Positions 1,926 to 56,295 of a stretch of DNA of 64,000 bases are shown here, one piece after another. The DNA lies in contig OZ244065.1 in assembly GCA_965215505.1 (NCBI GenBank), positions 5,664,001-5,728,000 on the forward strand, given 5' to 3'. The translations under genes and the position numbers were made by a program. The notes under the pieces were generated by a model. It was not told the DNA's origin. It worked only from the letters and a program-made list of their open reading frames with translations, and did not search any database. Positions within the stretch are counted from its first letter, which is position 1. The number at the start of each line of letters is the position of its first letter. The stretch comes from Capsulimonadaceae bacterium. GTDB lineage: Bacteria; Armatimonadota; Armatimonadia; Armatimonadales; Capsulimonadaceae.

Positions 1926-3011
1926 ATGGCGGACCAGACAAACCCGTGGGCCGACCCCCACCCGGAGATCCCGTACCTGCCCAAGCCGCCCGCCCAGGCG
2001 GCTGACTGGCTTGTGGAGCATGCTCCCGTCAACCCGAATGCCGCCCCGGAGGCGCGGGCGCTCCTGCACTACCTCTACAGCCTCTCTGGGACGCACACGC
2101 TGACCGGCCAGCACAATTTCCCCGGCCAGTCCGAGTATTCCACGAACCTGTCTACCAGCCTGACCGGCGAGACGCCTGCCCTTTATGGAACTGACTGGGG
2201 CTTCGCCGCTGCGGGCGACAAGGACTCAGCCTATGTGCGGCATGAACTTACTGCCGAACTCATGCGGCGCTGGCAGGGTGGGGCGGTCATCACCCTCTGC
2301 TGGCATGCCGTTCGCCCGACCGAAGACGAGCCGGTCACATTCTCCGATAGTGTGCAGGGCCATCTCACCGATGCAGAATTCGATGCGTTGCTGACGCCCG
2401 GTACTTCCATCCACAAGCACTGGTGCGTGCAGGTGGATATGGTCGCCGAGTACCTGAAGCAGCTTCAGGACGCGCATGTGCCGATCCTGTGGCGGCCGTT
2501 CCACGAGATCAACGGGGACTGGTTCTGGTGGAATGGGCGGCGCGGGGACGACGCCCACGGAACCAAGCAGCTCTACCGCCTGCTCTATGACCGTCTGGTC
2601 AATTTCCACGGCCTGAACAACCTGCTCTGGGTGTGGAACCCGGACCGGCCCGCCCGCGCCGACCGGCAGTTCGTGGACTACTTCCCCGGCCATGACAGGG
2701 TGGACGTGCTGGCCCTGGACTGCTACGGGGCGTTCGAGCAAAGCTATTATGATGACCTGAACGCTCTGTCCGACGGCAAGGTGATGGCGATTGGGGAGAC
2801 ATCCCACTCGCCGTCCATGACCGAGTACGAGGCACAGCCTAAATGGGCCTACTACATGAACTGGGCCGTTGATACCCCGGCAGTGGGGGGCGCACAGCCC
2901 GACCTGGACGCTCGGGCGGGTGGCCCGCGCCTGCTCTGCCTGGAAGACCCGGCCTACCGGGCAGGAATCAATCCGGTCCGCGCGGCCTGCGGCTTGAAGC
3001 CGATCGAATGA
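1926..3011 (+). CDS. Glycoside hydrolase family 26 (beta-mannanase-like)
   Basis: VPILWRPFHEINGDWFWW, NNLLWVW, YFPG..VDVLALDCY, KVMAIGE; GGAG upstream of ATG 1926. Confidence 0.9.
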   Translation: MADQTNPWADPHPEIPYLPKPPAQAADWLVEHAPVNPNAAPEARALLHYLYSLSGTHTLTGQHNFPGQSEYSTNLSTSLTGETPALYGTDWGFAAAGDKDSAYVRHELTAELMRRWQGGAVITLCWHAVRPTEDEPVTFSDSVQGHLTDAEFDALLTPGTSIHKHWCVQVDMVAEYLKQLQDAHVPILWRPFHEINGDWFWWNGRRGDDAHGTKQLYRLLYDRLVNFHGLNNLLWVWNPDRPARADRQFVDYFPGHDRVDVLALDCYGAFEQSYYDDLNALSDGKVMAIGETSHSPSMTEYEAQPKWAYYMNWAVDTPAVGGAQPDLDARAGGPRLLCLEDPAYRAGINPVRAACGLKPIE

Positions 3012-3015
3012 AGAA

Positions 3016-3106
3016 CCAGCCATGAACGGCCGGCCTACTCTTGGGGGAAAAATTCTTCGGGGTTGAATGCACGCCGAACGTAGGGGCGCACCTGGGTGTG
3101 CGCCCT
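3016..3106. repeat. Pair of GTAG-type REP palindromes (3016-3038 on -, 3080-3106 on +)
   Basis: GTAGGCCGGCCGTTCATGGCTGG (minus) and GTAGGGGCGCACCTGGGTGTGCGCCC (plus). Confidence 0.7.
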
Positions 3107-3207
3107 TCTTCTCTGCTTCCCTCCGCCTTCTCCTCTGCACTTTTCTCCCCGCCTTTTCCTGCCACCATCTCGCTGCCGAAGACCTCGCTCAGACACTCAT
3201 GCGCCTC

Positions 3208-3262
3208 TTGACAAACCCCGCGCCCTCGTGCTATTCTATATCCGACTGAATTAGTCGGAGAT
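3208..3262 (+). promoter_or_regulatory. Sigma70-like promoter followed by IscR/Rrf2-like operator
   Basis: TTGACA 3208-3213, TGn-TATTCT 3232-3237, then ATATCCGACTGAATTAGTCGGAGAT 3238-3262 (TCCGACT-N5-AGTCGGA inverted repeat); near-copy at the suf promoter. Confidence 0.75.
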
Positions 3263-3431
3263 TAGCACGAAAAATGCCCCGGACGCTTGCAGGCGTCCGG
3301 GGCATGGCGGGAAATGGCGGATACCACCCCTTTACCAACGGTATTCTACCCGATTTTCCTCCTGACGGTTCTTCTCCCGGCGGCTCAATCGCAATCGACG
3401 GCATCGCTACGGTTGCCGCAGGAGGAAAACC

Positions 3432-4226
3432 ATGTCATCTCACTCTCAGCGCGCCTCGCGGAAGGCGTTCACGCTGATCGAGCTGCTCGTCGTCATCGCC
3501 ATCATCGCGGTGCTTGCAGCCATTTTGTTTCCGGTCTTTTCCCAGGTCAGGGAAAAGGCGCGTTCCCTGGCCTGTCTGTCGAACATGAAGCAGATCGGGC
3601 TGGGCGTCCAGATGTACGTTCAGGACAATGACGAGCGGATCTTCTTCCGCGCGACCTCGAACGCCGCCTCTACGCGCACCGGCGCATCCATCGCGAAGAC
3701 CGCCCCCGTCTACAACTCGCTCCAGTGGTGGAACGGCATCATGCCCTTCGTCAAGAGCTACGCCGTCTTCTCCTGCCCGGATGACCCCGGCCCGACCCTG
3801 AGCGCCGATCCCGGCGGCAGCCTGGTCATCCCACGCTCTTACATCGCGTCCGCCGCCGTCGAGGACCTGACGCTGGCGCAGATCGGGGACCCGGCCCAAA
3901 CCCTCGTTATCACGGAGAAGTGGGACAAGAACGCGGCGGGGGCGGCCGTCAGCGCGCCGTGGATGGACGCCTTCGACGGCGACATGGCACCGGACGCGCC
4001 GCACGTCATGAAGGACGTCGCCGACCGCCACCAGGGCGGGCTGAACTGCGCCTTCTTCGATGGGCACGCCAAGTGGTATCGCCCTGGCGTACTCACAACC
4101 AGCCGTGACCTGACCGGCTGCACCTTGATTCACCAGTATCCGACCAGCCGGATGTGTGATGCCAGCATCCCCGGATGCACGAGCGTTCCGCCGGTCAACA
4201 ACCTGTGCAATCAGTTCACCTATTAG
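3432..4226 (+). CDS. Prepilin-type N-terminal cleavage/methylation protein with H-X9-DG motif (DUF1559-like)
   Basis: [69 protein letters not shown]. Confidence 0.93.
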
Positions 4227-4238
4227 GCGACCCAAAGC

Positions 4239-4270
4239 AAAAAGCCCCGCCGAACCCGGCGGGGCTGTTG
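4239..4270. terminator. Intrinsic terminator between convergent genes
   Basis: AGCCCCGCCG-aacc-CGGCGGGGCT with 5' A-run (U-tail on minus strand). Confidence 0.8.
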
Positions 4271-4287
4271 ACACGTCCGGCAGCGGA

Positions 4288-5349
4288 TTATGGCCGTCGC
4301 AGCATCTGCTTCATCTCGGTCACGTTCCCGGCGTTCGCCAGTGCCTCGTCTTCGGAGATCAGCCCGGCCTTCACATACTTGATCAGGCACTGGTTCATCG
4401 TCTGCATCCCCCAGAAGTTGCCCTCGGCGATAGACCCGTAAAGCTGGGACGCGCGGCCCTCCTCGATTAACTTGGCGATGGTGGGCGTGACCACCATCAC
4501 CTCGACCGCGCCGACCCGGCCCGTACCGTCCATGCGCGGCGGGAGCTTCTGCGAGATGACGCCGCGCAGCGAGCTGGAAAGCCGCAGGCAGACCATGTCG
4601 CGGTCCTGCGGCGGGTACATGTTGATGATACGGTCCAGGGTCTCCGCCGCCGACGCGGTGTGCAGCGTGGAGAAAACGAGGTGGCCGGTTTCGGCGGCGG
4701 CCAGGCCGACGCTCATCGTCTCAATGTCGCGCATCTCGCCGATCAGCAGGATGTCCGGATTCTGACGCATCATGTACTTCAGGGCGTCCGCGAACGAGTC
4801 CGTGTCCAGGCCGATCTCGCGCTGGGAGACGATGGACATCTTATCCGGGTGCATGAACTCGATGGGGTCCTCGCAGGTGATGATGTTCGCCCGGCGCGTC
4901 GAGTTGATCAGGTCGATCATGGCGGCCATCGTCGTGGTCTTGCCCGACCCGGTCGGCCCCGTCACGAGGATCAGGCCTTGACGCGACTTGGTAAGCTCCG
5001 CCAGGACGGGCGGCATGCCGAGCTGTTCCAGGGTGAAGATTTTCAGGGGGATGAGCCGAAGTACCATGCCCATGGTCCCGCGCTGCATGTAGACGTTGCA
5101 GCGGATGCGGCAGACGCCCTCCACCTCGAAAGCCAGATCCAGTTCATGCCGGTGTTCGAAGCGGCCGATCTGCTCGTGGGTCATGATGCTGTACGCCAGG
5201 TTGCGGCAGTCATCGGCGGACAGCGGGGGCGCGTCGGTCATGTGGATGCGACCGCTGATACGCATCGCGGGCGGGCTGTTGGCCTTGATGAACAGGTCGG
5301 AGGCTTTCTTGGCCGCCGCCACCGTCAGAAGCTCATTGATCTCTTCCAT
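4288..5349 (-). CDS. pilT: Type IV pilus retraction ATPase, PilT/PilU family
   Basis: ASDLFI, GLILVTGPTGSGKTTT, ITCEDPIEF, RQNPDILLIGEMRD, AETGHLVFSTLHT, GMQTM. Confidence 0.9.
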   Translation of the reverse strand: MEEINELLTVAAAKKASDLFIKANSPPAMRISGRIHMTDAPPLSADDCRNLAYSIMTHEQIGRFEHRHELDLAFEVEGVCRIRCNVYMQRGTMGMVLRLIPLKIFTLEQLGMPPVLAELTKSRQGLILVTGPTGSGKTTTMAAMIDLINSTRRANIITCEDPIEFMHPDKMSIVSQREIGLDTDSFADALKYMMRQNPDILLIGEMRDIETMSVGLAAAETGHLVFSTLHTASAAETLDRIINMYPPQDRDMVCLRLSSSLRGVISQKLPPRMDGTGRVGAVEVMVVTPTIAKLIEEGRASQLYGSIAEGNFWGMQTMNQCLIKYVKAGLISEDEALANAGNVTEMKQMLRRP

Positions 5350-46839: not shown

Positions 46840-46868
46840 TTGACGGGTAAGGGAATGTGCGTTATAAT
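46840..46868 (+). promoter_or_regulatory. Sigma70-like promoter (probably leaderless transcript)
   Basis: TTGACG-17-TATAAT, GTG start 6 nt downstream. Confidence 0.7.
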
Positions 46869-46874
46869 AACCGT

Positions 46875-47543
46875 GTGGACATACTAAAGCAGACCTCCCG
46901 TTCCGGCCTCCTGCCCTTCGCCCTTTGCGTTTTCCTGGTGAGGCAAGCGGGCGCGGCGCCCGCCCCGCCCGCCCCGGTGCCGCCTTCCTACGCCGAATCC
47001 CCGGAGATCCGCCGTCTGCTGCACTGGGAGCATTTCCCGCTCCACGTCTGCTTCGTGCCGGGGGACCTGACGACCAAGGAGCGGACCGACGCCGTGGAAG
47101 CCGGGTTCGACCAGTGGGTGCATGCCACCAAAGACTTTGTCCAGTATCAAGTCGTGACCAAGCCGGCACAGGCCGAGATCGTGGTGACGTTCCTGCCCCT
47201 AGACAGCGTGCCCGACCAGAGCGGGTCGTGTGGACACACGAAAATGACTTTCCTCACGCTGACTTTGAAATCGGCGGCCGTCTCGCTGGCGACGACGGGC
47301 GTCACGCCCGCCGACCTTCAGGCGACCGCCGCCCACGAGTTCGGCCACGCCCTGGGCATCGACGGCCACAGCGACGATCCCGACGACCTCATGTACGCCG
47401 TCCTGACTCACTCGCCGGACGGTGAGCTGCCGGTCCCCGCGCACGACGTCACGGCGCGCGATCTGAACACCCTCAAAGTCTGCTACCCCGCTTTCATCGT
47501 TCCCCCTCCGCCTCCCGCCCCGGCCCACGCCCCGCCGGACTAA
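46875..47543 (+). CDS. Secreted matrixin-family metalloprotease, copy 1
   Basis: HEFGHALGIDGHS..DLM Met-turn; signal peptide. Confidence 0.88.
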   Translation: MDILKQTSRSGLLPFALCVFLVRQAGAAPAPPAPVPPSYAESPEIRRLLHWEHFPLHVCFVPGDLTTKERTDAVEAGFDQWVHATKDFVQYQVVTKPAQAEIVVTFLPLDSVPDQSGSCGHTKMTFLTLTLKSAAVSLATTGVTPADLQATAAHEFGHALGIDGHSDDPDDLMYAVLTHSPDGELPVPAHDVTARDLNTLKVCYPAFIVPPPPPAPAHAPPD

Positions 47544-47597
47544 CCGCACCCGACCCACCGAGTTGACGCGCGGGCGGCCGTGTGTCATACTGGAGGC

Positions 47598-48230
47598 ATG
47601 TGGCGCGTTGTCCCGATCTGCCTCCTGTCGTTGGCGCTTTCCGTGCCCGCCTGCCCCGCCCGCGACGTGCCCGTGCGTCCCGACTACACGCACGCGCCCG
47701 GACTGCGCGCGCTGCTGCACTGGGAACGCTTCCCGCTGCGCGTCTCCTTCCCGGCGGGCCGGCTGGCGACGCGGGAGCGCAAGGCGCTCGCCCTGGCTGG
47801 ATTCGACGAGTGGGTGCAGGCCACGCGCGGTGCCGTCTCCTATGAGGTCGTTCCCACTGCCTCGCCGGGCGACCTCACCGTCATTTTCCTGCCACACCCT
47901 TCCGCCGTCTCTCCCCCCGTAGGCGGGCTGACGACGCTGACCCGCGCCGGGGCCGTCTTGAAGAAGGCCGCCATGTCCCTCACCGAACGGGACGAGGACC
48001 CGGCCGCCTTCCAGGCCACGGCGGCCCACGAGTTCGGCCACGCCCTGGGCATCGACGGCCACAGCGACGACCCCGACGACATCATGTTCCCGGTGATGAG
48101 CCTCCCCCGGCCCCTGGTCAGGAACGACGAGACCGACCCGCCGCCCCCCGTCCGCGGCGTGACGCGGCGTGACCTCAACACCCTCCGAGCCGCCTATCCC
48201 GGCCTCGCATTTGCCCCCGCGAAACATTGA
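47598..48230 (+). CDS. Secreted matrixin-family metalloprotease, copy 2
   Basis: HEFGHALGIDGHS..DIM; own TTGACG-17-CATACT promoter at 47563-47591. Confidence 0.88.
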   Translation: MWRVVPICLLSLALSVPACPARDVPVRPDYTHAPGLRALLHWERFPLRVSFPAGRLATRERKALALAGFDEWVQATRGAVSYEVVPTASPGDLTVIFLPHPSAVSPPVGGLTTLTRAGAVLKKAAMSLTERDEDPAAFQATAAHEFGHALGIDGHSDDPDDIMFPVMSLPRPLVRNDETDPPPPVRGVTRRDLNTLRAAYPGLAFAPAKH

Positions 48231-48281
48231 CAAAGGCCCCCGCTTCTGGGTACACTATATCCGACAAGATTAGTCGGCAAT
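48227..48281 (+). promoter_or_regulatory. suf promoter with IscR/Rrf2-like operator
   Basis: TTGACA(48227)-18-TACACT(48251) then ATATCCGACAAGATTAGTCGGCAAT 48257-48281. Confidence 0.78.
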
Positions 48282-48325: not shown

Positions 48326-49771
<1,446 letters not shown>

Positions 49772-49782
49772 GGGAAAACAAG

Positions 49783-50220
49783 ATGCCGTATCCTGACCAG
49801 CGCGATTTGGTTCGTGCGCTCATCCTGAACGATCATACTGAGCTTAAAGACACTCCGCTGGCTTTGGCGATTTACTTTAAGTCGCGCCAGTGGCCCAACG
49901 AGGAATGCGTCTTTGAAGTCTTGCATCGTTTCGGTCTTGATGAGGTCAGTGAGGTCAGGTCTGTTTTCCAGATACAGTTCGGGGCGACGCAGAACTTCCC
50001 TCTGCCCGACGGCGACCGCCTGCATCTTTTCCTTTCCAATCCGATCGAGATGATGTATGCCATAGAACACGGCTGGCCTGAGATCCACGATCTCGTGAGG
50101 GCGATCCAAGCGGGCAGTTATGAAGTGATCTATGGCTGCCCGGATGACCCGAGTGCGGATCAGGTACTGGCCGCGCTCAAAGGGTTCGCGAATGCACTGT
50201 CGCTGGCTGCTGTTGCATGA
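49783..50220 (+). CDS. Hypothetical protein coupled to HEPN gene
   Basis: 145-aa ORF, ATGA overlap with next gene, atypical codon usage. Confidence 0.7.
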   Translation: MPYPDQRDLVRALILNDHTELKDTPLALAIYFKSRQWPNEECVFEVLHRFGLDEVSEVRSVFQIQFGATQNFPLPDGDRLHLFLSNPIEMMYAIEHGWPEIHDLVRAIQAGSYEVIYGCPDDPSADQVLAALKGFANALSLAAVA

Positions 50221-50732
50221 AACAGTCAGACGCATGGCTGGTACAGGCGGCGGCGGACCTGTCCGCGGGAGAGAAACTGTTCCAGCAAGACGATTCCACC
50301 TCATACTGTCAGGCTATCGCCAAGTATCAGCAGACTGTGGAGAAGGCGGTCAAGGCAATGGTTGCCGCCGTCAATGACCTCGGCAGCAACCTTGCGATCA
50401 CGCCAAATCATATGCCTATCGCAGAGATCGATGGCTTGTTGTCTCTCCGCAGGGCGATTGACAATGCTTCCGTGAGACGCCTGGCAAAGATATTTGAACT
50501 GCACAGGAGCGCGGTTGAAGAGCTGTGCCGTTTCGCGCCGCGCTGGCCGGAAGATGGCAAGGGTTTCGCAAGAAACACGGAATACCCTTTTCTTCGTGAC
50601 GGAGAGTGGACCGCGCCCGTTGTGCAAGGATCATTCACACTTCAAGAAGCGAAACGCGCACAGGCGACTGCACGGGCGGTTCACAAAGCGGCAAATGACT
50701 TTGCGGTTGCGATCAGATTAGGTCCATCCTGA
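50217..50732 (+). CDS. HEPN-like domain protein
   Basis: WLVQAAADL, KYQQTVEKAVKAM, NH, RNTEYPF. Confidence 0.7.
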   Translation: MKQSDAWLVQAAADLSAGEKLFQQDDSTSYCQAIAKYQQTVEKAVKAMVAAVNDLGSNLAITPNHMPIAEIDGLLSLRRAIDNASVRRLAKIFELHRSAVEELCRFAPRWPEDGKGFARNTEYPFLRDGEWTAPVVQGSFTLQEAKRAQATARAVHKAANDFAVAIRLGPS

Positions 50733-50757
50733 AAACCAACGACAAGAAAGAGACACC

Positions 50758-51003
50758 ATGGCAAGCAAATACATCATCCAAGTCACCGGCTGGCCCGACC
50801 ACGCGCACGAAGTCGTGACGCACACCGAGCAGGAAGCCCAGGTCAAGGCCGAGGAGCTGGTCAAGAAGTCCAACGCCGAGGGCGTTCCCCTGAAGGCGCA
50901 CGGCGGGCGGCACGACGGCAAAGACCACCATTGGCAGGGCACGAATGAGAACGGCCACCCGCGCGAGATCAAGATCGTCGTCGGCCAGGGCAAGGTTTCT
51001 TAA
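50758..51003 (+). CDS. Small His-rich hypothetical protein
   Basis: 81 aa, host-like G/C-ending codons, between sufB and sufC. Confidence 0.75.
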   Translation: MASKYIIQVTGWPDHAHEVVTHTEQEAQVKAEELVKKSNAEGVPLKAHGGRHDGKDHHWQGTNENGHPREIKIVVGQGKVS

Positions 51004-51027
51004 GGTTTAGAGAAGGACGAAGACACA

Positions 51028-51813
<786 letters not shown>

Positions 51814-51930
51814 TTTCCGGCTAGTTTTCGGCCGCGGGCGTTTTCCGGCACTAGAAGCGCCGGCCCACTGTTATGGTATCAGTTGGCCGGCGTTCCCGGT
51901 GCCGGGCTTGTATTGAACAGAGCGATGCTT

Positions 51931-53262
51931 ATGACTACAGACACTATCACAGCGACCAACAGCTACCTGCGCGATTTCACAGGCACCGACGCTGGCAGCG
52001 ATGCGCCAGGCCCCGTCTGGTTGCGCGCCTTGCGCGCTCGGGCCGCCGAGCGCTTCGCCGCCGTCGGCTTCCCGACCCGGCGCAACGAGGAGTGGCGCTT
52101 CACCAATGTCTCGCCCATCGTCGAGACGCCGTTTGCGCTGGCGGCCGAGGCCCAGAGCCAGCTCACAGCCGACGGCCTGCTCCCGTTCACCTATGAGGGC
52201 ATGGGCGGGACGCAGCTCGTGTTCGTCAACGGCCACTTCCACGCCGACCTTTCCAGCGCGGCTTTCCCGGCGGGCGTCGTCGTCAGCAGCCTCGCCTCGG
52301 CGATGGCGGCCTACCCGGAGTTGGTGGAAGCCCACTTGGGCCGTCTGGCCGGGTTCGACACGCAGGCGTTTGTCGCCCTGAACACGGCCGCCCTGGAAGA
52401 CGGCGCGTTCGTCCATATCAAGCGCGGCGTCGTCGTTGACGAGCCGATCCACCTGCTGTTCGTCTCCGTGCCTGAGGCTGGTCCGACTGTGTCCCACCCG
52501 CGCACGCTGATCGTCGCCGAGGAGAACTGTCAGGCCACCATCGTCGAGAGCTATTCGGGGGCCGCCGACCAGGTTTACTTCACCAACGCCGTGACTGAAG
52601 TGGTGGTGGCCGAGAACGCCGTCCTGGACCACTATAAAGTTCAGCGCGAGAGCCTGAAGGCTTATCACGTCGCCACGATGCAGCTCCAGATCGCCCGCAG
52701 TGCGAACTTCTCCAGCCACTCCATCGCGCTTGGCGGCCTGCTCGTCCGCAACGACGCCAACGCCTATCTCGGCGGCGAGGGCATCGAGTGTACCTTGAAC
52801 GGCGTTTATCTCGGCACCGGGCGACAGATTATTGACAACCACACCGCCATTGACCATGCCATGCCCCACTGCAACAGCCACGAGGTCTACAAAGGCATCC
52901 TGGACGACCATTCGCGCGGCGTCTTCAACGGCAAGATCTTCGTCCGGCAGGATGCCCAGAAGACCGACGCCAAGCAGACCAATCAAACCTTGCTTCTGTC
53001 GCCGACGGCCCAGATAGACACCAAGCCGCAGCTTGAGATCTTCGCAGACGACGTGAAATGTACGCACGGTGCGACCATCGGCCAGTTGTCCGACGAGGCC
53101 ATGTTCTACCTGCGCGCGCGGGGCATCCCGCAGGACCAGGCCCGTGCCCTGCTGACCTACGCCTTCGCCAGCGACATCGTCAGCCGCATCAAGGTGGACG
53201 CCATCCGCGCCCAGCTTGATCAGGTCCTCCTGGCCGACCGCGGCTTGCAGGGCTTGGCCTGA
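51931..53262 (+). CDS. sufD: Fe-S assembly protein SufD
   Basis: EEWRFT, FNGKIFVRQDAQKTDA, KPQLEIFADDVKCTHGAT, FYLRARGI. Confidence 0.96.
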   Translation: MTTDTITATNSYLRDFTGTDAGSDAPGPVWLRALRARAAERFAAVGFPTRRNEEWRFTNVSPIVETPFALAAEAQSQLTADGLLPFTYEGMGGTQLVFVNGHFHADLSSAAFPAGVVVSSLASAMAAYPELVEAHLGRLAGFDTQAFVALNTAALEDGAFVHIKRGVVVDEPIHLLFVSVPEAGPTVSHPRTLIVAEENCQATIVESYSGAADQVYFTNAVTEVVVAENAVLDHYKVQRESLKAYHVATMQLQIARSANFSSHSIALGGLLVRNDANAYLGGEGIECTLNGVYLGTGRQIIDNHTAIDHAMPHCNSHEVYKGILDDHSRGVFNGKIFVRQDAQKTDAKQTNQTLLLSPTAQIDTKPQLEIFADDVKCTHGATIGQLSDEAMFYLRARGIPQDQARALLTYAFASDIVSRIKVDAIRAQLDQVLLADRGLQGLA

Positions 53263-53825
53263 TGCGGTACGGCGCGCTGACCGAACTCCCGCCCGGCCTG
53301 CCGGTGCCGGAGGACGACGGCGCGGCGTCGCACCTTCCGGGGATGGCGCTGCCGCCGGTGACGCTCCCCGCTACTGACGGCGGCGGCGTTGACCTCGCCG
53401 GCCTGACGGGCAGGAGTGTCGTCTTCTGCTACCCGCGCACCGGCCAGCCGGGTCAGCCGCCCCTGGTGGGCGAGTGGGACCTCATACCGGGCGCGCGGGG
53501 CTGCACGCCGCAGACCTGCGCTTTCCGCGACCTTCACGCCGAGTTCGCCGCCCTCGGGGCGGGGGTGTTCGGCCTGAGCAGCCAGGACACAGCCTACCAG
53601 AAGGAAGTGGCGGAGCGGCTTCACCTGCCGTTCCCGATCCTAAGCGACGAGCGCCTGGAGTTCACGTCCGCCCTACGCCTGCCGACGTTCGAGGTGGGCG
53701 GCGAGACGCTGCTGAAGCGCCTGGCCTTCATCGCCCTTGACGGGCGAATCGAGAAGGTCTTTTACCCGGTCTTCCCGCCGGACAAGAACGCGGACGAGGT
53801 GCTGACATGGCTACGGCGACATTAG
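53262..53825 (+). CDS. Peroxiredoxin (BCP-like)
   Basis: YPRTG..GARGCTPQTCAFRD, LHLPFPILSD, YPVFPPD. Confidence 0.9.
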   Translation: MRYGALTELPPGLPVPEDDGAASHLPGMALPPVTLPATDGGGVDLAGLTGRSVVFCYPRTGQPGQPPLVGEWDLIPGARGCTPQTCAFRDLHAEFAALGAGVFGLSSQDTAYQKEVAERLHLPFPILSDERLEFTSALRLPTFEVGGETLLKRLAFIALDGRIEKVFYPVFPPDKNADEVLTWLRRH

Positions 53826-53845
53826 AAACGCGACCTGTGACACGA

Positions 53846-55096
53846 ATGACAGCCACGAATTATGCGACCGATACCGACGCTTACGACGTGCGGCGCGTCC
53901 GGCAGGATTTCCCGATCCTGCGCCAGACCGTGCATGGCAAGCCCCTGGTCTACCTGGACAACGCCAACACGACCCAGAAGCCGACCCAGGTTCTGGACGC
54001 CATCTCGGAATACTATGCCGAGTACAATGCCAACATCCATCGGGCCACCCACCTCCTGAGCGAGAAGGCGACGCGCGGCTATGAAGGCGCGCGCGTCAAG
54101 GTCAAGAACTTCCTGAACGCCGCCGACGCCCACGAGATCATCTACGTCCGCAACGCCACCGAGGGCGTCAACCTCGTCGCGCAGACGTGGGGCCGCAAGA
54201 ACATCAAGGAAGGCGACGAGATCATCGTCTCCGAGATGGAACACCACTGTAACATCGTCCCCTGGCAGATGCTCTGCGAGGAGAAGGGTGCCATTCTCCG
54301 GGTCATCCCGATCAGCGACGACGGTGAGCTTCTGCTGGACGAGTACGCGAAGCTGCTCAACGAGCGCACAAAGTTCGTCGGCATCGTCCATATGTCGAAC
54401 GCGCTCGGCACGATCAACCCGGTCAAGCAGGTCATTGATCTGGCACACGCGCAAGGCGTCCCCGTCCTGGTGGATGCTGCCCAGTCGGCCTACCACGTCC
54501 CGATTGACGTTCAGGAACTCGACTGCGACTTCCTGGTGTTCTCAGGACATAAGCTGTATGGCCCCACCGGCATCGGCATCCTGTATGGCAAGCGGTCCTT
54601 TTTGGAGGCCATGCCGCCCTGGCAGGGTGGGGGGGACATGATCCTGACCGTCTCGTTCACGAAGACCGCTTACAACGAGATTCCTTACAAGTTCGAGGCC
54701 GGCACGCCGCACATCGCCGGGGCCATCGGATTGGGCGCGGCGGTTGACTATCTGACCGCCCTCGGTATGGATAACCTGGCCGCCTACGAGCACGAACTGA
54801 CGCGGTACGGCGAGGAGGCACTGGCCCAGGTGCCCGGCCTGCGGATGATTGGGACCGCCCGCGACAAGGCCAGCGTCTTCTCGTTCACCCTGGGCGACAT
54901 CCACCCGCACGACATCGGGACGATCCTGGACGGAGAGGGCATCGCCATCCGCACCGGCCAGCACTGTGCCCACCCGGTCATGCAGCGGTTCGGCGTCCCC
55001 GCCACCGCCCGCGCGTCCCTGGCCCTTTACAACACGCGGGACGAGATAGACGCGCTCGTCCAGGGCCTGCACACGGTCATCGAGGTATTCGGCTAG
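53846..55096 (+). CDS. sufS: Cysteine desulfurase SufS
   Basis: LVYLDNA, FSGHKLYGPTGIG, FEAGTP, IRTGQHCA.P. Confidence 0.97.
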   Translation: MTATNYATDTDAYDVRRVRQDFPILRQTVHGKPLVYLDNANTTQKPTQVLDAISEYYAEYNANIHRATHLLSEKATRGYEGARVKVKNFLNAADAHEIIYVRNATEGVNLVAQTWGRKNIKEGDEIIVSEMEHHCNIVPWQMLCEEKGAILRVIPISDDGELLLDEYAKLLNERTKFVGIVHMSNALGTINPVKQVIDLAHAQGVPVLVDAAQSAYHVPIDVQELDCDFLVFSGHKLYGPTGIGILYGKRSFLEAMPPWQGGGDMILTVSFTKTAYNEIPYKFEAGTPHIAGAIGLGAAVDYLTALGMDNLAAYEHELTRYGEEALAQVPGLRMIGTARDKASVFSFTLGDIHPHDIGTILDGEGIAIRTGQHCAHPVMQRFGVPATARASLALYNTRDEIDALVQGLHTVIEVFG

Positions 55097-55111
55097 GGGG
55101 TTATTGGGGCA

Positions 55112-55564
55112 ATGTCCGACCTGAGAGAACTCTACCAGGAAGTCATCCTGGACCACAACAAGAAGCCGCGCAACTTCGGCGTGCTGGAAGACGCCACGCA
55201 GGTCGCGCAGGGCCACAACCCCCTGTGCGGCGACAACGTCACCGTCTACCTGCATGTCGAGGACGACACCATCAAGGACATCAGCTTCAACGGCTCCGGC
55301 TGTGCCATCTCTAAGGCTTCCGCGTCGCTGATGACCGGCGAGCTGAAGGGCAAGACCGTGGCCGAGGCCGAGACGCTGTTCCAGTCCTTCCACGATCTGG
55401 TCACAGGGCCCGAGGCCTCCGAGGAGACCTTGGAAGACCTGGGCAAGCTGGCCGTCTTCTCGGGCGTTCGCGACTACCCCGCCCGCGTCAAGTGCGCCTC
55501 GCTGGCCTGGCACACCGTCCATAATGCTTTACAGGGCAAGCCTGAGCCGGCCGTCACGGAGTAA
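55112..55564 (+). CDS. sufU: SufU (NifU-like) sulfur transfer/scaffold protein
   Basis: LYQEVILDH, HNPLCGD, GCAISKASAS, RVKCASLAW. Confidence 0.95.
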   Translation: MSDLRELYQEVILDHNKKPRNFGVLEDATQVAQGHNPLCGDNVTVYLHVEDDTIKDISFNGSGCAISKASASLMTGELKGKTVAEAETLFQSFHDLVTGPEASEETLEDLGKLAVFSGVRDYPARVKCASLAWHTVHNALQGKPEPAVTE

Positions 55565-55571
55565 ATCTACC

Positions 55572-55904
55572 ATGCCCATAGCCGACACGAAAGTCCACCC
55601 GCTGGTCATCGAGGCCGAAGTCATGGAGGCCCTGCGGGACGTCTATGACCCCGAAATTCCCGTCAACATCTACGACCTGGGCCTCATCTACGATGTCAAT
55701 GTAGACGAGTATGGCGTCGTGGACATCGAGATGACCCTGACCTCCCCCGCCTGTCCCGTCGCCGGCTCCCTGCCCGGCGAGGTCGAGCAGAAGGTGCGCG
55801 GCGTCCCCGGCGTCACCGACGTCAGCGTCGAGCTGGTCTGGGAACCCGCCTGGAGCATGGACCGCATGAGCGAGGAAGCCAAGCTCGAACTCGGCTTCTT
55901 CTAA
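55572..55904 (+). CDS. sufT: DUF59/SufT Fe-S assembly protein
   Basis: VYDPEIPVNIYDLGLIY, MTLTSPACPVA, WEPAW..RMSEEA. Confidence 0.92.
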   Translation: MPIADTKVHPLVIEAEVMEALRDVYDPEIPVNIYDLGLIYDVNVDEYGVVDIEMTLTSPACPVAGSLPGEVEQKVRGVPGVTDVSVELVWEPAWSMDRMSEEAKLELGFF

Positions 55905-55917
55905 AGGAACACACACC

Positions 55918-56295
55918 ATGAGCGACACCGCCGTACTGGAACCGAATACCGAGACTTCTGCCAACCCCGTCATTTTGACGCCCGCCGCCGTCGCCCAGGT
56001 CAAGCGCCTGCGCGCCAAAAAGGGCAATGACACACTCAACCTGCGCGTCGGCGTCAAGGGCGGCGGCTGCTCCGGCCTCTCCTACGTCCTCGCCCTGGAA
56101 GAGACCCCGCGCGCCACCGACACCGTCTACGACGTGGACGGCGTGACCGTCCTGGTGGACCCCAAGAGCGCACAGTTTATTCAGGGCATGACCCTGGACT
56201 ACAGCACCGCCAACCTGCTCGAAGGTGGCTGGAAGTACCTCAACCCCAACGTCCAGAAGAGCTGCGGCTGCGGGACCTCGTTCACGCCGAAGTGA
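55918..56295 (+). CDS. A-type Fe-S carrier (SufA/IscA/HesB)
   Basis: GVKGGGCSGLSY, NPN..SCGCGTSF. Confidence 0.95.
   Translation: MSDTAVLEPNTETSANPVILTPAAVAQVKRLRAKKGNDTLNLRVGVKGGGCSGLSYVLALEETPRATDTVYDVDGVTVLVDPKSAQFIQGMTLDYSTANLLEGGWKYLNPNVQKSCGCGTSFTPK

Follow-up and report, generated by a model that had tools for sequence, protein, structure and literature searches.

A shared operator resembling IscR type-1 sites at the promoters of suf, iron-import and DUF1559 pilin-like genes in a Capsulimonadaceae bacterium

Why should the gene for a pilin-like protein carry the same DNA element at its promoter as an operon for iron-sulfur (Fe-S) cluster assembly? The question is raised by a 64,000-nucleotide stretch of the genome of a Capsulimonadaceae bacterium (assembly GCA_965215505.1, contig OZ244065.1), here called the window. 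In the window, similar 25-bp palindromes follow the promoters of the suf operon and of a gene encoding P0001, a prepilin-like protein of the DUF1559 / H-X9-DG family. We found a third such site elsewhere in the genome, upstream of an FTR1-feoAB iron-import operon. These findings are probably best explained by one Rrf2-family repressor that holds an Fe-S cluster and jointly controls suf, FTR1-feoAB and the DUF1559 gene, whose product would serve iron acquisition. The host genome is a single contig of 6,177,771 bases (66.5% G+C), of which the window is 5664001-5728000, and the names of homologues place the lineage in Armatimonadota (a Chthonomonadales metagenome-assembled genome, Fimbriimonas ginsengisoli and Capsulimonas corticalis).

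We found that the two window sites agree in both sequence and position. Operator 1 (ATATCCGACTGAATTAGTCGGAGAT), at the DUF1559 gene, and operator 2 (ATATCCGACAAGATTAGTCGGCAAT), at suf, are identical at 20/25 positions, as an initial annotation of this DNA had stated. Direct comparison also confirmed the annotated layout: each promoter has a TTGACA and an 18-bp spacer, and the first base of each operator lies directly 3' of the -10 hexamer, where it would cover the predicted transcription start. The promoter of the DUF1559 gene was the sole promoter-like site in a scan of positions 2900-4500, and its layout is kept in relatives. A likeness to the IscR type-1 site had been noticed as well. The Escherichia coli type-1 consensus has been published as ATASYYGACTRWWWYAGTCRRSTAT (PMC3899308), and operators 1 and 2 match it at 22/25 and 21/25 positions, respectively. 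Coordinates of these and other features are given in Table 1.

We found that sites of this kind are rare in the genome and stand at promoters. The whole genome was scored at the 20 positions common to the two window operators. A score of 20 was reached at just two places, the window operators themselves. The next best score, 17, belonged to a site directly behind a TTGACA/CATAAT promoter, upstream of an operon of FTR1, cation-efflux-like, feoA and feoB genes. Apart from reverse-strand readings of these three palindromic sites (scores 15-17), nothing scored above 15. The window operators were also the two best matches in the genome to the E. coli consensus, and only 4 positions per strand in the whole genome matched it at 20/25 or better. 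We then scored the genome with a position weight matrix (PWM) built from 17 relatives' sites. Three strong sites were found, all at promoters, with scores of 45.0 (DUF1559), 35.8 (FTR1-feoAB) and 33.9 (suf). The next match scored 13.8 (genome 2685979) and all others less than 10. The match at 13.8 was set aside, being apparently intragenic and having no promoter-like context. Because the three scores stand so far above the rest, the regulon in this genome is small and sharply defined. None of the genome's three TonB-dependent-receptor-like genes lies near a top PWM match.

The core of the palindrome, by itself, carries little information. A search of the window for TCCGAC-N7-GTCGGA with up to two mismatches found 3 matches (5.6 expected, hence not above chance), and across the whole genome the core, with one mismatch allowed, was matched 672 times, mostly at random. 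The signal resides in the full 25-mer together with its fixed position at the promoter. That the 25-mer might be a dispersed repeat was considered and rejected on the whole-genome scoring, both at the 20 positions and with the PWM.

Table 1. Features of the DUF1559 and suf loci and the third operator site (window coordinates unless stated otherwise)
Feature	Position	Strand	Remarks
Sigma-70-type promoter of the DUF1559 gene	3208..3237	+	TTGACA 3208-3213; 18-bp spacer; TG-extended -10 TATTCT 3232-3237
Operator 1	3238..3262	none	25-bp palindrome ATATCCGACTGAATTAGTCGGAGAT over the expected transcription start; PWM 45.0, best in genome; 22/25 to type-1 consensus
Leader block	3270..3365		About 100 nt, directly after operator 1; common to 15 operator-linked DUF1559 leaders
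Conserved hairpin in leader	3274..3305		G+C-rich; loop UUGCAG on + strand; T-run 3' on minus strand only
Anti-Shine-Dalgarno stretch	3354..3364	+	TTTTCCTCCTG; exact complement of 3419-3429
Shine-Dalgarno region of the DUF1559 gene	3419..3429	+	CAGGAGGAAAA
DUF1559 / H-X9-DG prepilin-like gene (P0001)	3432..4226	+	264 aa; monocistronic; N_methyl, DUF1559, TIGR04294
Hairpin between the P0001 and ATPase genes	4243..4266		G+C-rich
T2SSE/PilT-like ATPase gene	4288-5349	minus	Downstream of and convergent with the P0001 gene
suf promoter	48227..48256	+	TTGACA 48227-48232; 18-bp spacer; TACACT 48251-48256; read directly
Operator 2	48257..48281	none	ATATCCGACAAGATTAGTCGGCAAT; PWM 33.9; 29/30 relatives' loci; 21/25 to type-1 consensus
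suf operon	48326..56295	+	sufB, HEPN-domain gene (50217-50732), sufC, sufD, redoxin, sufS, NifU_N, FeS_assembly_P, Fe-S_biosyn
Site 3	genome 2531440-2531464		Outside window; upstream of the FTR1 / cation-efflux-like / feoA / feoB operon

We found that the operator is conserved in relatives, before the same three classes of genes. At sufB it directly follows the -10 in 29/30 family loci (the miss is L101), and the promoter is kept as TTGACA...GGTACACT, with GGTACACT as the -10. The family consensus of the operator is ATCTCCGACT-N5-AGTCGGAGAT. A search for ATCTCCGAC-N7-GTCGGAGAT with no more than two mismatches yielded 64 sites in 35/39 family genomes; the reversed control pattern yielded 1. Genes downstream were typed by a Pfam scan of the open reading frames on the promoter side of each site. 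The resulting counts are lower bounds, as sites with more than two mismatches were met solely in loci already found by DNA or protein search. DUF1559/N_methyl prepilin-like genes lay downstream at 23 sites, in 19/39 family genomes. FeoA/FeoB genes lay downstream at 16 sites and FTR1 genes at 7, the host genome included, and feo or FTR1 operons stood behind the operator in 23/39 genomes. A cation-efflux-like gene followed 2 sites and an ABC (ATP-binding cassette) ATPase gene 1, and 4 sites were followed by no Pfam family. Behind the operator there were also acyl-ACP-desaturase-like genes, of a di-iron enzyme family, at 3 sites (L040, L113 and L117) and OprB-type porin genes at 2 (L105 and L107). 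Because these last two kinds of gene follow the operator in some relatives, regulon content varies between genera.

A DNA search with positions 3200-3440 recovered the promoter, operator and leader in 21/71 genomes of the order. Among 151 sampled genomes of the phylum, four families (f1, 7/7; f2, 5/6; f8, 4/8; and f27) had sites with an A+T-rich spacer, and the remaining matches look like chance. The sites, their position at promoters, their uniqueness in the genome and their conservation before the three gene classes are direct observations.

Which protein would bind the operator? The regulator had been said to be absent from the window, and this is correct: a profile search found two Rrf2 genes in the genome, both elsewhere. 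The first encodes P0002, a protein of 166 aa (genome 1002784-1003284; PF02082, 115.6 bits vs a cut-off of 30), and is followed by a class-V aminotransferase (Aminotran_5, cysteine-desulfurase-like) gene. P0002 has three cysteines spaced C95-x7-C103-x5-C109, which are retained in five orthologues and in four suf-linked paralogues. The second Rrf2 protein is CymR-like and has none of the three cysteines; its gene follows and adjoins a rhodanese gene.

Relatives provide a link between the operator and Rrf2 proteins. In three genomes (G059, G063 and G065), the operator precedes an extra Rrf2 gene directly in front of sufB, and the encoded proteins are 46-47% identical to P0002. A fourth relative, G060, also has an extra Rrf2 gene before sufB, but its locus is the one of 30 in which no operator was found. 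The suf-linked Rrf2 paralogues share with P0002 the three cysteines and the near-identical helix ELLAKxLQxLA. The Rrf2-sufB operons behind the operator tie the motif to Rrf2 proteins, and judged from these comparisons they are the strongest tie of motif to protein family. Based on these results we suggest that an Fe-S-type Rrf2 repressor very likely binds the operator, and that P0002 in particular is probably that repressor.

The operator might instead be bound by another regulator (the CymR-like Rrf2 protein, a Fur-family protein or an unrelated factor) that responds to cysteine or sulfur, peroxide or nitric oxide. P0002 does not reach any NCBIfam equivalog cut-off. Its best specific model, suf_reg_Xantho, gave 79.7 vs 110.65, and the IscR models TIGR02010 and NF008110 gave 62.1 vs 207.55 and 48.5 vs 275, respectively. 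The promoter of the P0002 gene has only a weak 10+5+10 palindrome (PWM 3.2; 14/25 to the type-1 consensus), which occurs only in the host and close kin, apart from one of score 19 in L070, and is absent from most orthologous promoters. Autoregulation is not supported in most relatives, and the usual argument from it therefore fails for P0002. In addition, other candidates exist in the genome, namely the second Rrf2 gene and two Fur-family genes, and Rrf2 proteins with three cysteines include sensors of nitric oxide and redox state (matches in the PDB were to NsrR and RsrR-type proteins). However, the site fits the IscR type-1 pattern at 21-22/25 positions, three genomes have it in front of an Rrf2-sufB operon, cluster cysteines are lacking in the CymR-like protein, and the target genes serve to import iron and assemble Fe-S clusters rather than to make cysteine or detoxify nitric oxide. 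We therefore regard another regulator as quite improbable.

Many iscS-linked Rrf2 promoters of relatives (L041-L070) keep a palindrome of their own, CCGAAC-N4-6-TTCGG, in the -35/-10 spacer. It is not the operator described here, so these promoters may be under a second regulator.

Which protein binds, in which direction it acts, what it senses and what the DUF1559 protein does are inferred here. The 25-bp palindrome would serve as operator for a repressor of the Rrf2 family with an Fe-S cluster. With the operator placed directly 3' of the -10, a dimer bound there would occlude the expected start site and prevent initiation; this position points to repression. By analogy with IscR at type-1 sites, Rhodobacter IscR and RirA, the cluster-loaded form would be the one that binds. 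The targets are iron import and Fe-S assembly, which suggests an iron or Fe-S signal. Upon shortage of iron or Fe-S clusters, or damage to clusters, the repressor would leave the DNA, and the suf operon, the FTR1 / cation-efflux-like / feoA / feoB operon and the single DUF1559 gene would be induced together. The DUF1559 protein would then be exported and, as a pilin-type protein, would most likely take part in iron acquisition at the cell envelope. The initial annotation had proposed co-repression of the DUF1559 gene with suf and a role in iron or sulfur acquisition. One type of operator does stand at both promoters, and co-repression is what the shared operators would predict. Of the two nutrients, iron appears to be the right one and not sulfur, since the third strong site sits on the FTR1-feoAB operon.

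We next consider the protein itself. P0001 has a prepilin N-terminal motif with Glu at +5 (PF07963, 33.1 bits; TIGR02532, 31.0 vs 16.3), a match to DUF1559 (PF07596, 31.5 bits vs 23.3) that covers profile positions 2-60 alone, and the H-X9-DG motif (TIGR04294, 21.8 vs 19), of which H200, D210 and G211 are invariant in 121 sequences. A structure model built on the 121-sequence alignment had a predicted local distance difference test score (pLDDT) of 94.4 (a 16-sequence version gave 38) and consists of a long alpha-1 helix and a beta-sheet head of ~200 aa. With this model, Foldseek returned no match in the PDB at E <= 0.001, and the top rows from VIA-align were all type IV pilins or pseudopilins with weak scores (PilA4, Z 4.7; EpsG, 3.8; PulG, 3.4). 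A search of the ESM Atlas with P0001 returned DUF1559 clusters alone, and the match in a PDB sequence search was limited to the N-terminal helix. Judged from the model, P0001 appears pilin-like, with a large head that has no known function.

The cysteines of P0001 only partly bear out the Cys-rich C-terminus that had been pointed to. C241 and C248 are confined to the operator-linked clade of P0001 and are missing in its operator-less sister clade. Four others (C48, C115, C230 and C259) are invariant in both clades. In an exported pilin-like protein, the cysteines are more likely to form disulfides than to be metal ligands.

We found that operator-linked DUF1559 genes do not form one lineage. 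The host genome has about 55-70 pilin-like paralogues, P0001 among them. To 38 host paralogues that have the H-X9-DG motif we added 21 operator-linked genes from relatives and 7 orthologues from the operator-less sister clade, and made a quick IQ-TREE maximum-likelihood tree of these 66 rows (an empty row, NOS_L012, was left out). Interspersed with operator-less host paralogues, the operator-linked genes occupied six or more supported clades at separate places in this tree. Because of this, the association of operator and DUF1559 gene appears to have been made or kept many times and not inherited once.

In some relatives the gene directly downstream of an operator-linked DUF1559 gene encodes a PepSY_TM protein (L017 3-575, minus strand, and L140 3730-5025) or a cytochrome c (L114 3347-3910). 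The PepSY_TM family includes siderophore reductases. These neighbors are hints, from gene order, of an iron role for the DUF1559 protein.

These results also bear on whether the regulon might be real and the DUF1559 protein nonetheless be a pilin or pseudopilin variant, induced by iron or oxidative stress, with no part in iron uptake, acting in surface motility, attachment, biofilm release or other secretion. Its prepilin signal is standard, and by fold it was matched to type IV pilins and to pseudopilins of type II systems. A PilT/T2SSE-type ATPase gene is its convergent neighbor, an arrangement also seen in relatives L004 and L027, neither the sequence nor the model of the protein bears a mark of a metal or siderophore site, and iron limitation stimulates twitching in Pseudomonas. 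In contrast, the remaining regulon is narrowly Fe-S assembly and iron import, DUF1559 genes of at least six clades have been recruited to it, and some of them are followed by the PepSY_TM or cytochrome c genes. Two paralogues, described below, lie behind a cobalamin riboswitch and a pstS-type repeat, which fits nutrient capture better than motility. A pilin without a role in iron is, in our judgment, unlikely.

The DUF1559 gene has a long leader, and part of it is conserved. Operator 1 and the gene are separated by 169 nt (197 nt from the operator's first base to the ATG). The leader block that follows the operator is single-copy in the genome; loci with the block include L016-L039, L128 and L132. 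Its hairpin has compensatory changes at 7/11 pairs. By alifold, its folding energy is -26.7 kcal/mol on the minus strand and, less favorably, -20.0 kcal/mol on the plus strand, and the plus-strand mismatches comprise 6 A-C/C-A, which would be G-U on the minus strand, vs 2 U-G. On the plus strand an A-run lies ahead of the hairpin, and thus the minus strand resembles an intrinsic terminator. A conserved -10-like GGGGTAGAAT, read directly on the minus strand of the leader, could be a -10. Farther along, the anti-Shine-Dalgarno stretch is predicted to pair with the Shine-Dalgarno region (-24.2 kcal/mol, z -3.9). Four related leaders show such a duplex of 11-15 bp, in which one change covaries, and the pairing is clear in 4/13 leaders tested. 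A search of Rfam with positions 3150-3480 at E <= 10 gave only sub-threshold minus-strand matches on the hairpin (NsiR1, 24 bits vs 39). Folding with alifold and a scan of column pairs found no convincing helix beyond the hairpin on either strand.

The conserved leader with its minus-strand terminator-like hairpin indicates a second layer of control for the DUF1559 gene, and the block may represent an antisense RNA or else a novel RNA that regulates in cis. A stronger version of this idea is that the main product of the locus is a small or leader RNA, from the sense or the opposite strand, and that selection acts on the 100-nt block and not on the protein. Examples would be an antisense RNA terminated by the hairpin, or a leader that senses a ligand and masks the ribosome-binding site. 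The block is kept across leaders of different DUF1559 clades, and the covariation, the strand bias of stability and mismatches, the minus-strand T-run and GGGGTAGAAT, and the extended anti-Shine-Dalgarno pairing in four leaders are all as expected for such an RNA. However, the block is missing from the short leaders of six operator-linked DUF1559 genes, the suf and feo promoters carry the same operator without it, no Rfam family was matched at threshold, no further helix was supported on either strand, and the pairing was clear in just the 4/13 leaders. We consider it rather unlikely that RNA is the main product.

We found that two other DUF1559 paralogues in the genome are preceded by control elements of their own. 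At one of them (genome 362831-363541), the element is a cobalamin riboswitch, which matches RF00174 with 46 bits and lies 53 nt upstream of the gene (region 362831-363789; L143 1595-1790, minus strand). In the tree this paralogue clusters with the operator-linked genes of L039, L017 and L140 and not with P0001. Like P0001, it lies directly behind a nutrient-sensing control element, but the element is an RNA switch, where P0001 has a protein operator, and the nutrient is another. The other is the closest paralogue of P0001 (54% identical; genome 5929390-5930232, upstream DNA 5930232-5930301, minus strand). In place of the Rrf2 operator, it carries a direct repeat, CTTAAyrTTCTCTTtACAT, at the -35. 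The repeat is present at orthologues of this paralogue in 8/8 relatives' loci with upstream DNA (L006-L014) and upstream of pstS in the host (TIGR00975, 350 bits vs 205; genome 3054739-3054826). The genome has 4, 7 and 17 copies at up to 2, 3 and 4 mismatches, respectively (reversed and shuffled controls, 0, 0 and no more than 3). The repeat looks like a Pho box.

These cases raise a wider possibility, which we put forward tentatively and consider less probable than not to hold: DUF1559 pilin-like proteins might be nutrient-specific devices for capture or uptake at the envelope, each wired to the sensor of its own nutrient, with the iron-wired ones having an undescribed leader or antisense RNA in addition. 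If so, one genome would contain P0001 wired to an Fe-S Rrf2 regulator, its closest paralogue to a Pho-box-like repeat and a third to a cobalamin riboswitch, and DUF1559 proteins in Armatimonadota, and perhaps in Planctomycetota and Verrucomicrobiota, would be the equivalent of TonB-dependent receptors elsewhere. The three TonB-dependent-receptor-like genes of this genome count against such a generalization, as does the lack of any Rfam element in front of its other 53 pilin-like genes.

Several findings weigh against joint control by an Fe-S Rrf2 repressor and an iron role for the DUF1559 protein. By these searches, 20/39 family genomes have no operator-linked DUF1559 gene, and the host genome has no strong operator site beyond the three in the PWM scan. 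P0002 falls below the equivalog cut-offs, the palindrome at its own promoter is weak and not found in most orthologous promoters, and the two Fur-family genes are present. The head of P0001 has no clear structural relative (best Z 4.7), so that the fold gives no pointer to iron. The leader indicates control of the DUF1559 gene by more than the operator. Finally, no Rfam element (riboswitch) was found at gathering scores upstream of 53 other pilin-like genes of the genome. With these points included, we still consider a shared Fe-S Rrf2 repressor, with a DUF1559 protein that serves iron acquisition, the probable explanation.

Some neighboring features are recorded here in their own right. A GH26 gene that has a terminator-like hairpin of its own lies upstream of the P0001 gene. 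Directly upstream of the suf promoter are two matrixin-like (Peptidase_M10) genes (window 46857-48230). Within the suf operon, the HEPN-domain gene is inserted between sufB and sufC, and ~450 bases before it (49771-50216) have no assigned family. The insert may be toxin-antitoxin-like.

Genomes of Armatimonadota, Planctomycetota and Verrucomicrobiota each encode tens to hundreds of DUF1559 / H-X9-DG proteins, for which, to our knowledge, no function has been established. An excerpt of PMC2754498 describes them as putative solute-binding proteins without naming a function, and a full-text literature search for DUF1559 and H-X9-DG found no assigned role in the text excerpts it returned. A literature search found no paper joining Rrf2 with Armatimonadetes. 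The conserved membership of DUF1559 genes in an iron/Fe-S regulon would be a first functional lead for the family, with iron limitation as the condition and iron uptake as the phenotype, and the B12 and phosphate-type wiring of sister paralogues strengthens it. It would also be the first time that the regulon of an Fe-S-type Rrf2 repressor has been reconstructed in Armatimonadota, a phylum in which, judging from the sites, iron import appears to be under Rrf2 rather than obviously Fur control.

How does this system compare with those already known? E. coli IscR has two types of site (PMC4169559), and at type-1 sites the [2Fe-2S] holo-protein binds and represses iscRSUA (PMC3899308, PMC4169559). 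The system described here shares with E. coli the 25-bp palindrome, its close match to the type-1 consensus, the overlap of operator and promoter core, and a candidate regulator that is a three-Cys Rrf2 protein encoded beside a cysteine-desulfurase-like gene. There are also differences. E. coli uses type-2 sites to activate suf, whereas here a type-1-like site is proposed to repress it. P0002 is far below the IscR equivalog cut-offs, has the spacing C-x7-C-x5-C and has no strong autoregulatory site, and the regulon here includes iron import and a pilin-like gene.

In its logic, the proposed control is closer to that of Rhodobacter sphaeroides IscR (with its Iron-Rhodo-box) and RirA of Rhizobiales, where a single Fe-S-dependent Rrf2 repressor serves iron uptake and isc-suf. 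R. sphaeroides IscR represses feoAB, other iron-uptake genes and isc-suf via one palindromic box at or near the -35/-10, and requires its cluster to do so (PMC4618611). Those systems belong to another phylum, with a box of 19 bp (25 bp here) and a single cysteine, whereas three-Cys ligation is predicted here. Their targets are TonB-dependent and ABC siderophore systems, whereas here the non-transporter target is the DUF1559 pilin-like gene. With type IV pilins and type II pseudopilins (PilA and GspG/PulG/EpsG), P0001 shares the prepilin motif with Glu at +5 and, as the model predicts, a long alpha-1 helix and a beta-sheet head. It differs in its weak match scores (Z 3.4-4.7), in a head of roughly double the size, and in a C-terminal H-X9-DG motif within a family of ~55-70 copies per genome.

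Taken together, these comparisons suggest an Fe-S-sensing system of the Rrf2 type that couples iron import to Fe-S assembly, in a new phylum. By analogy, the regulator would work like R. sphaeroides IscR or RirA; its site looks like an E. coli type-1 site, and by score the regulator is no IscR equivalog. The new element is the conserved, repeatedly acquired pilin-like target, a member of a very large family without known function.

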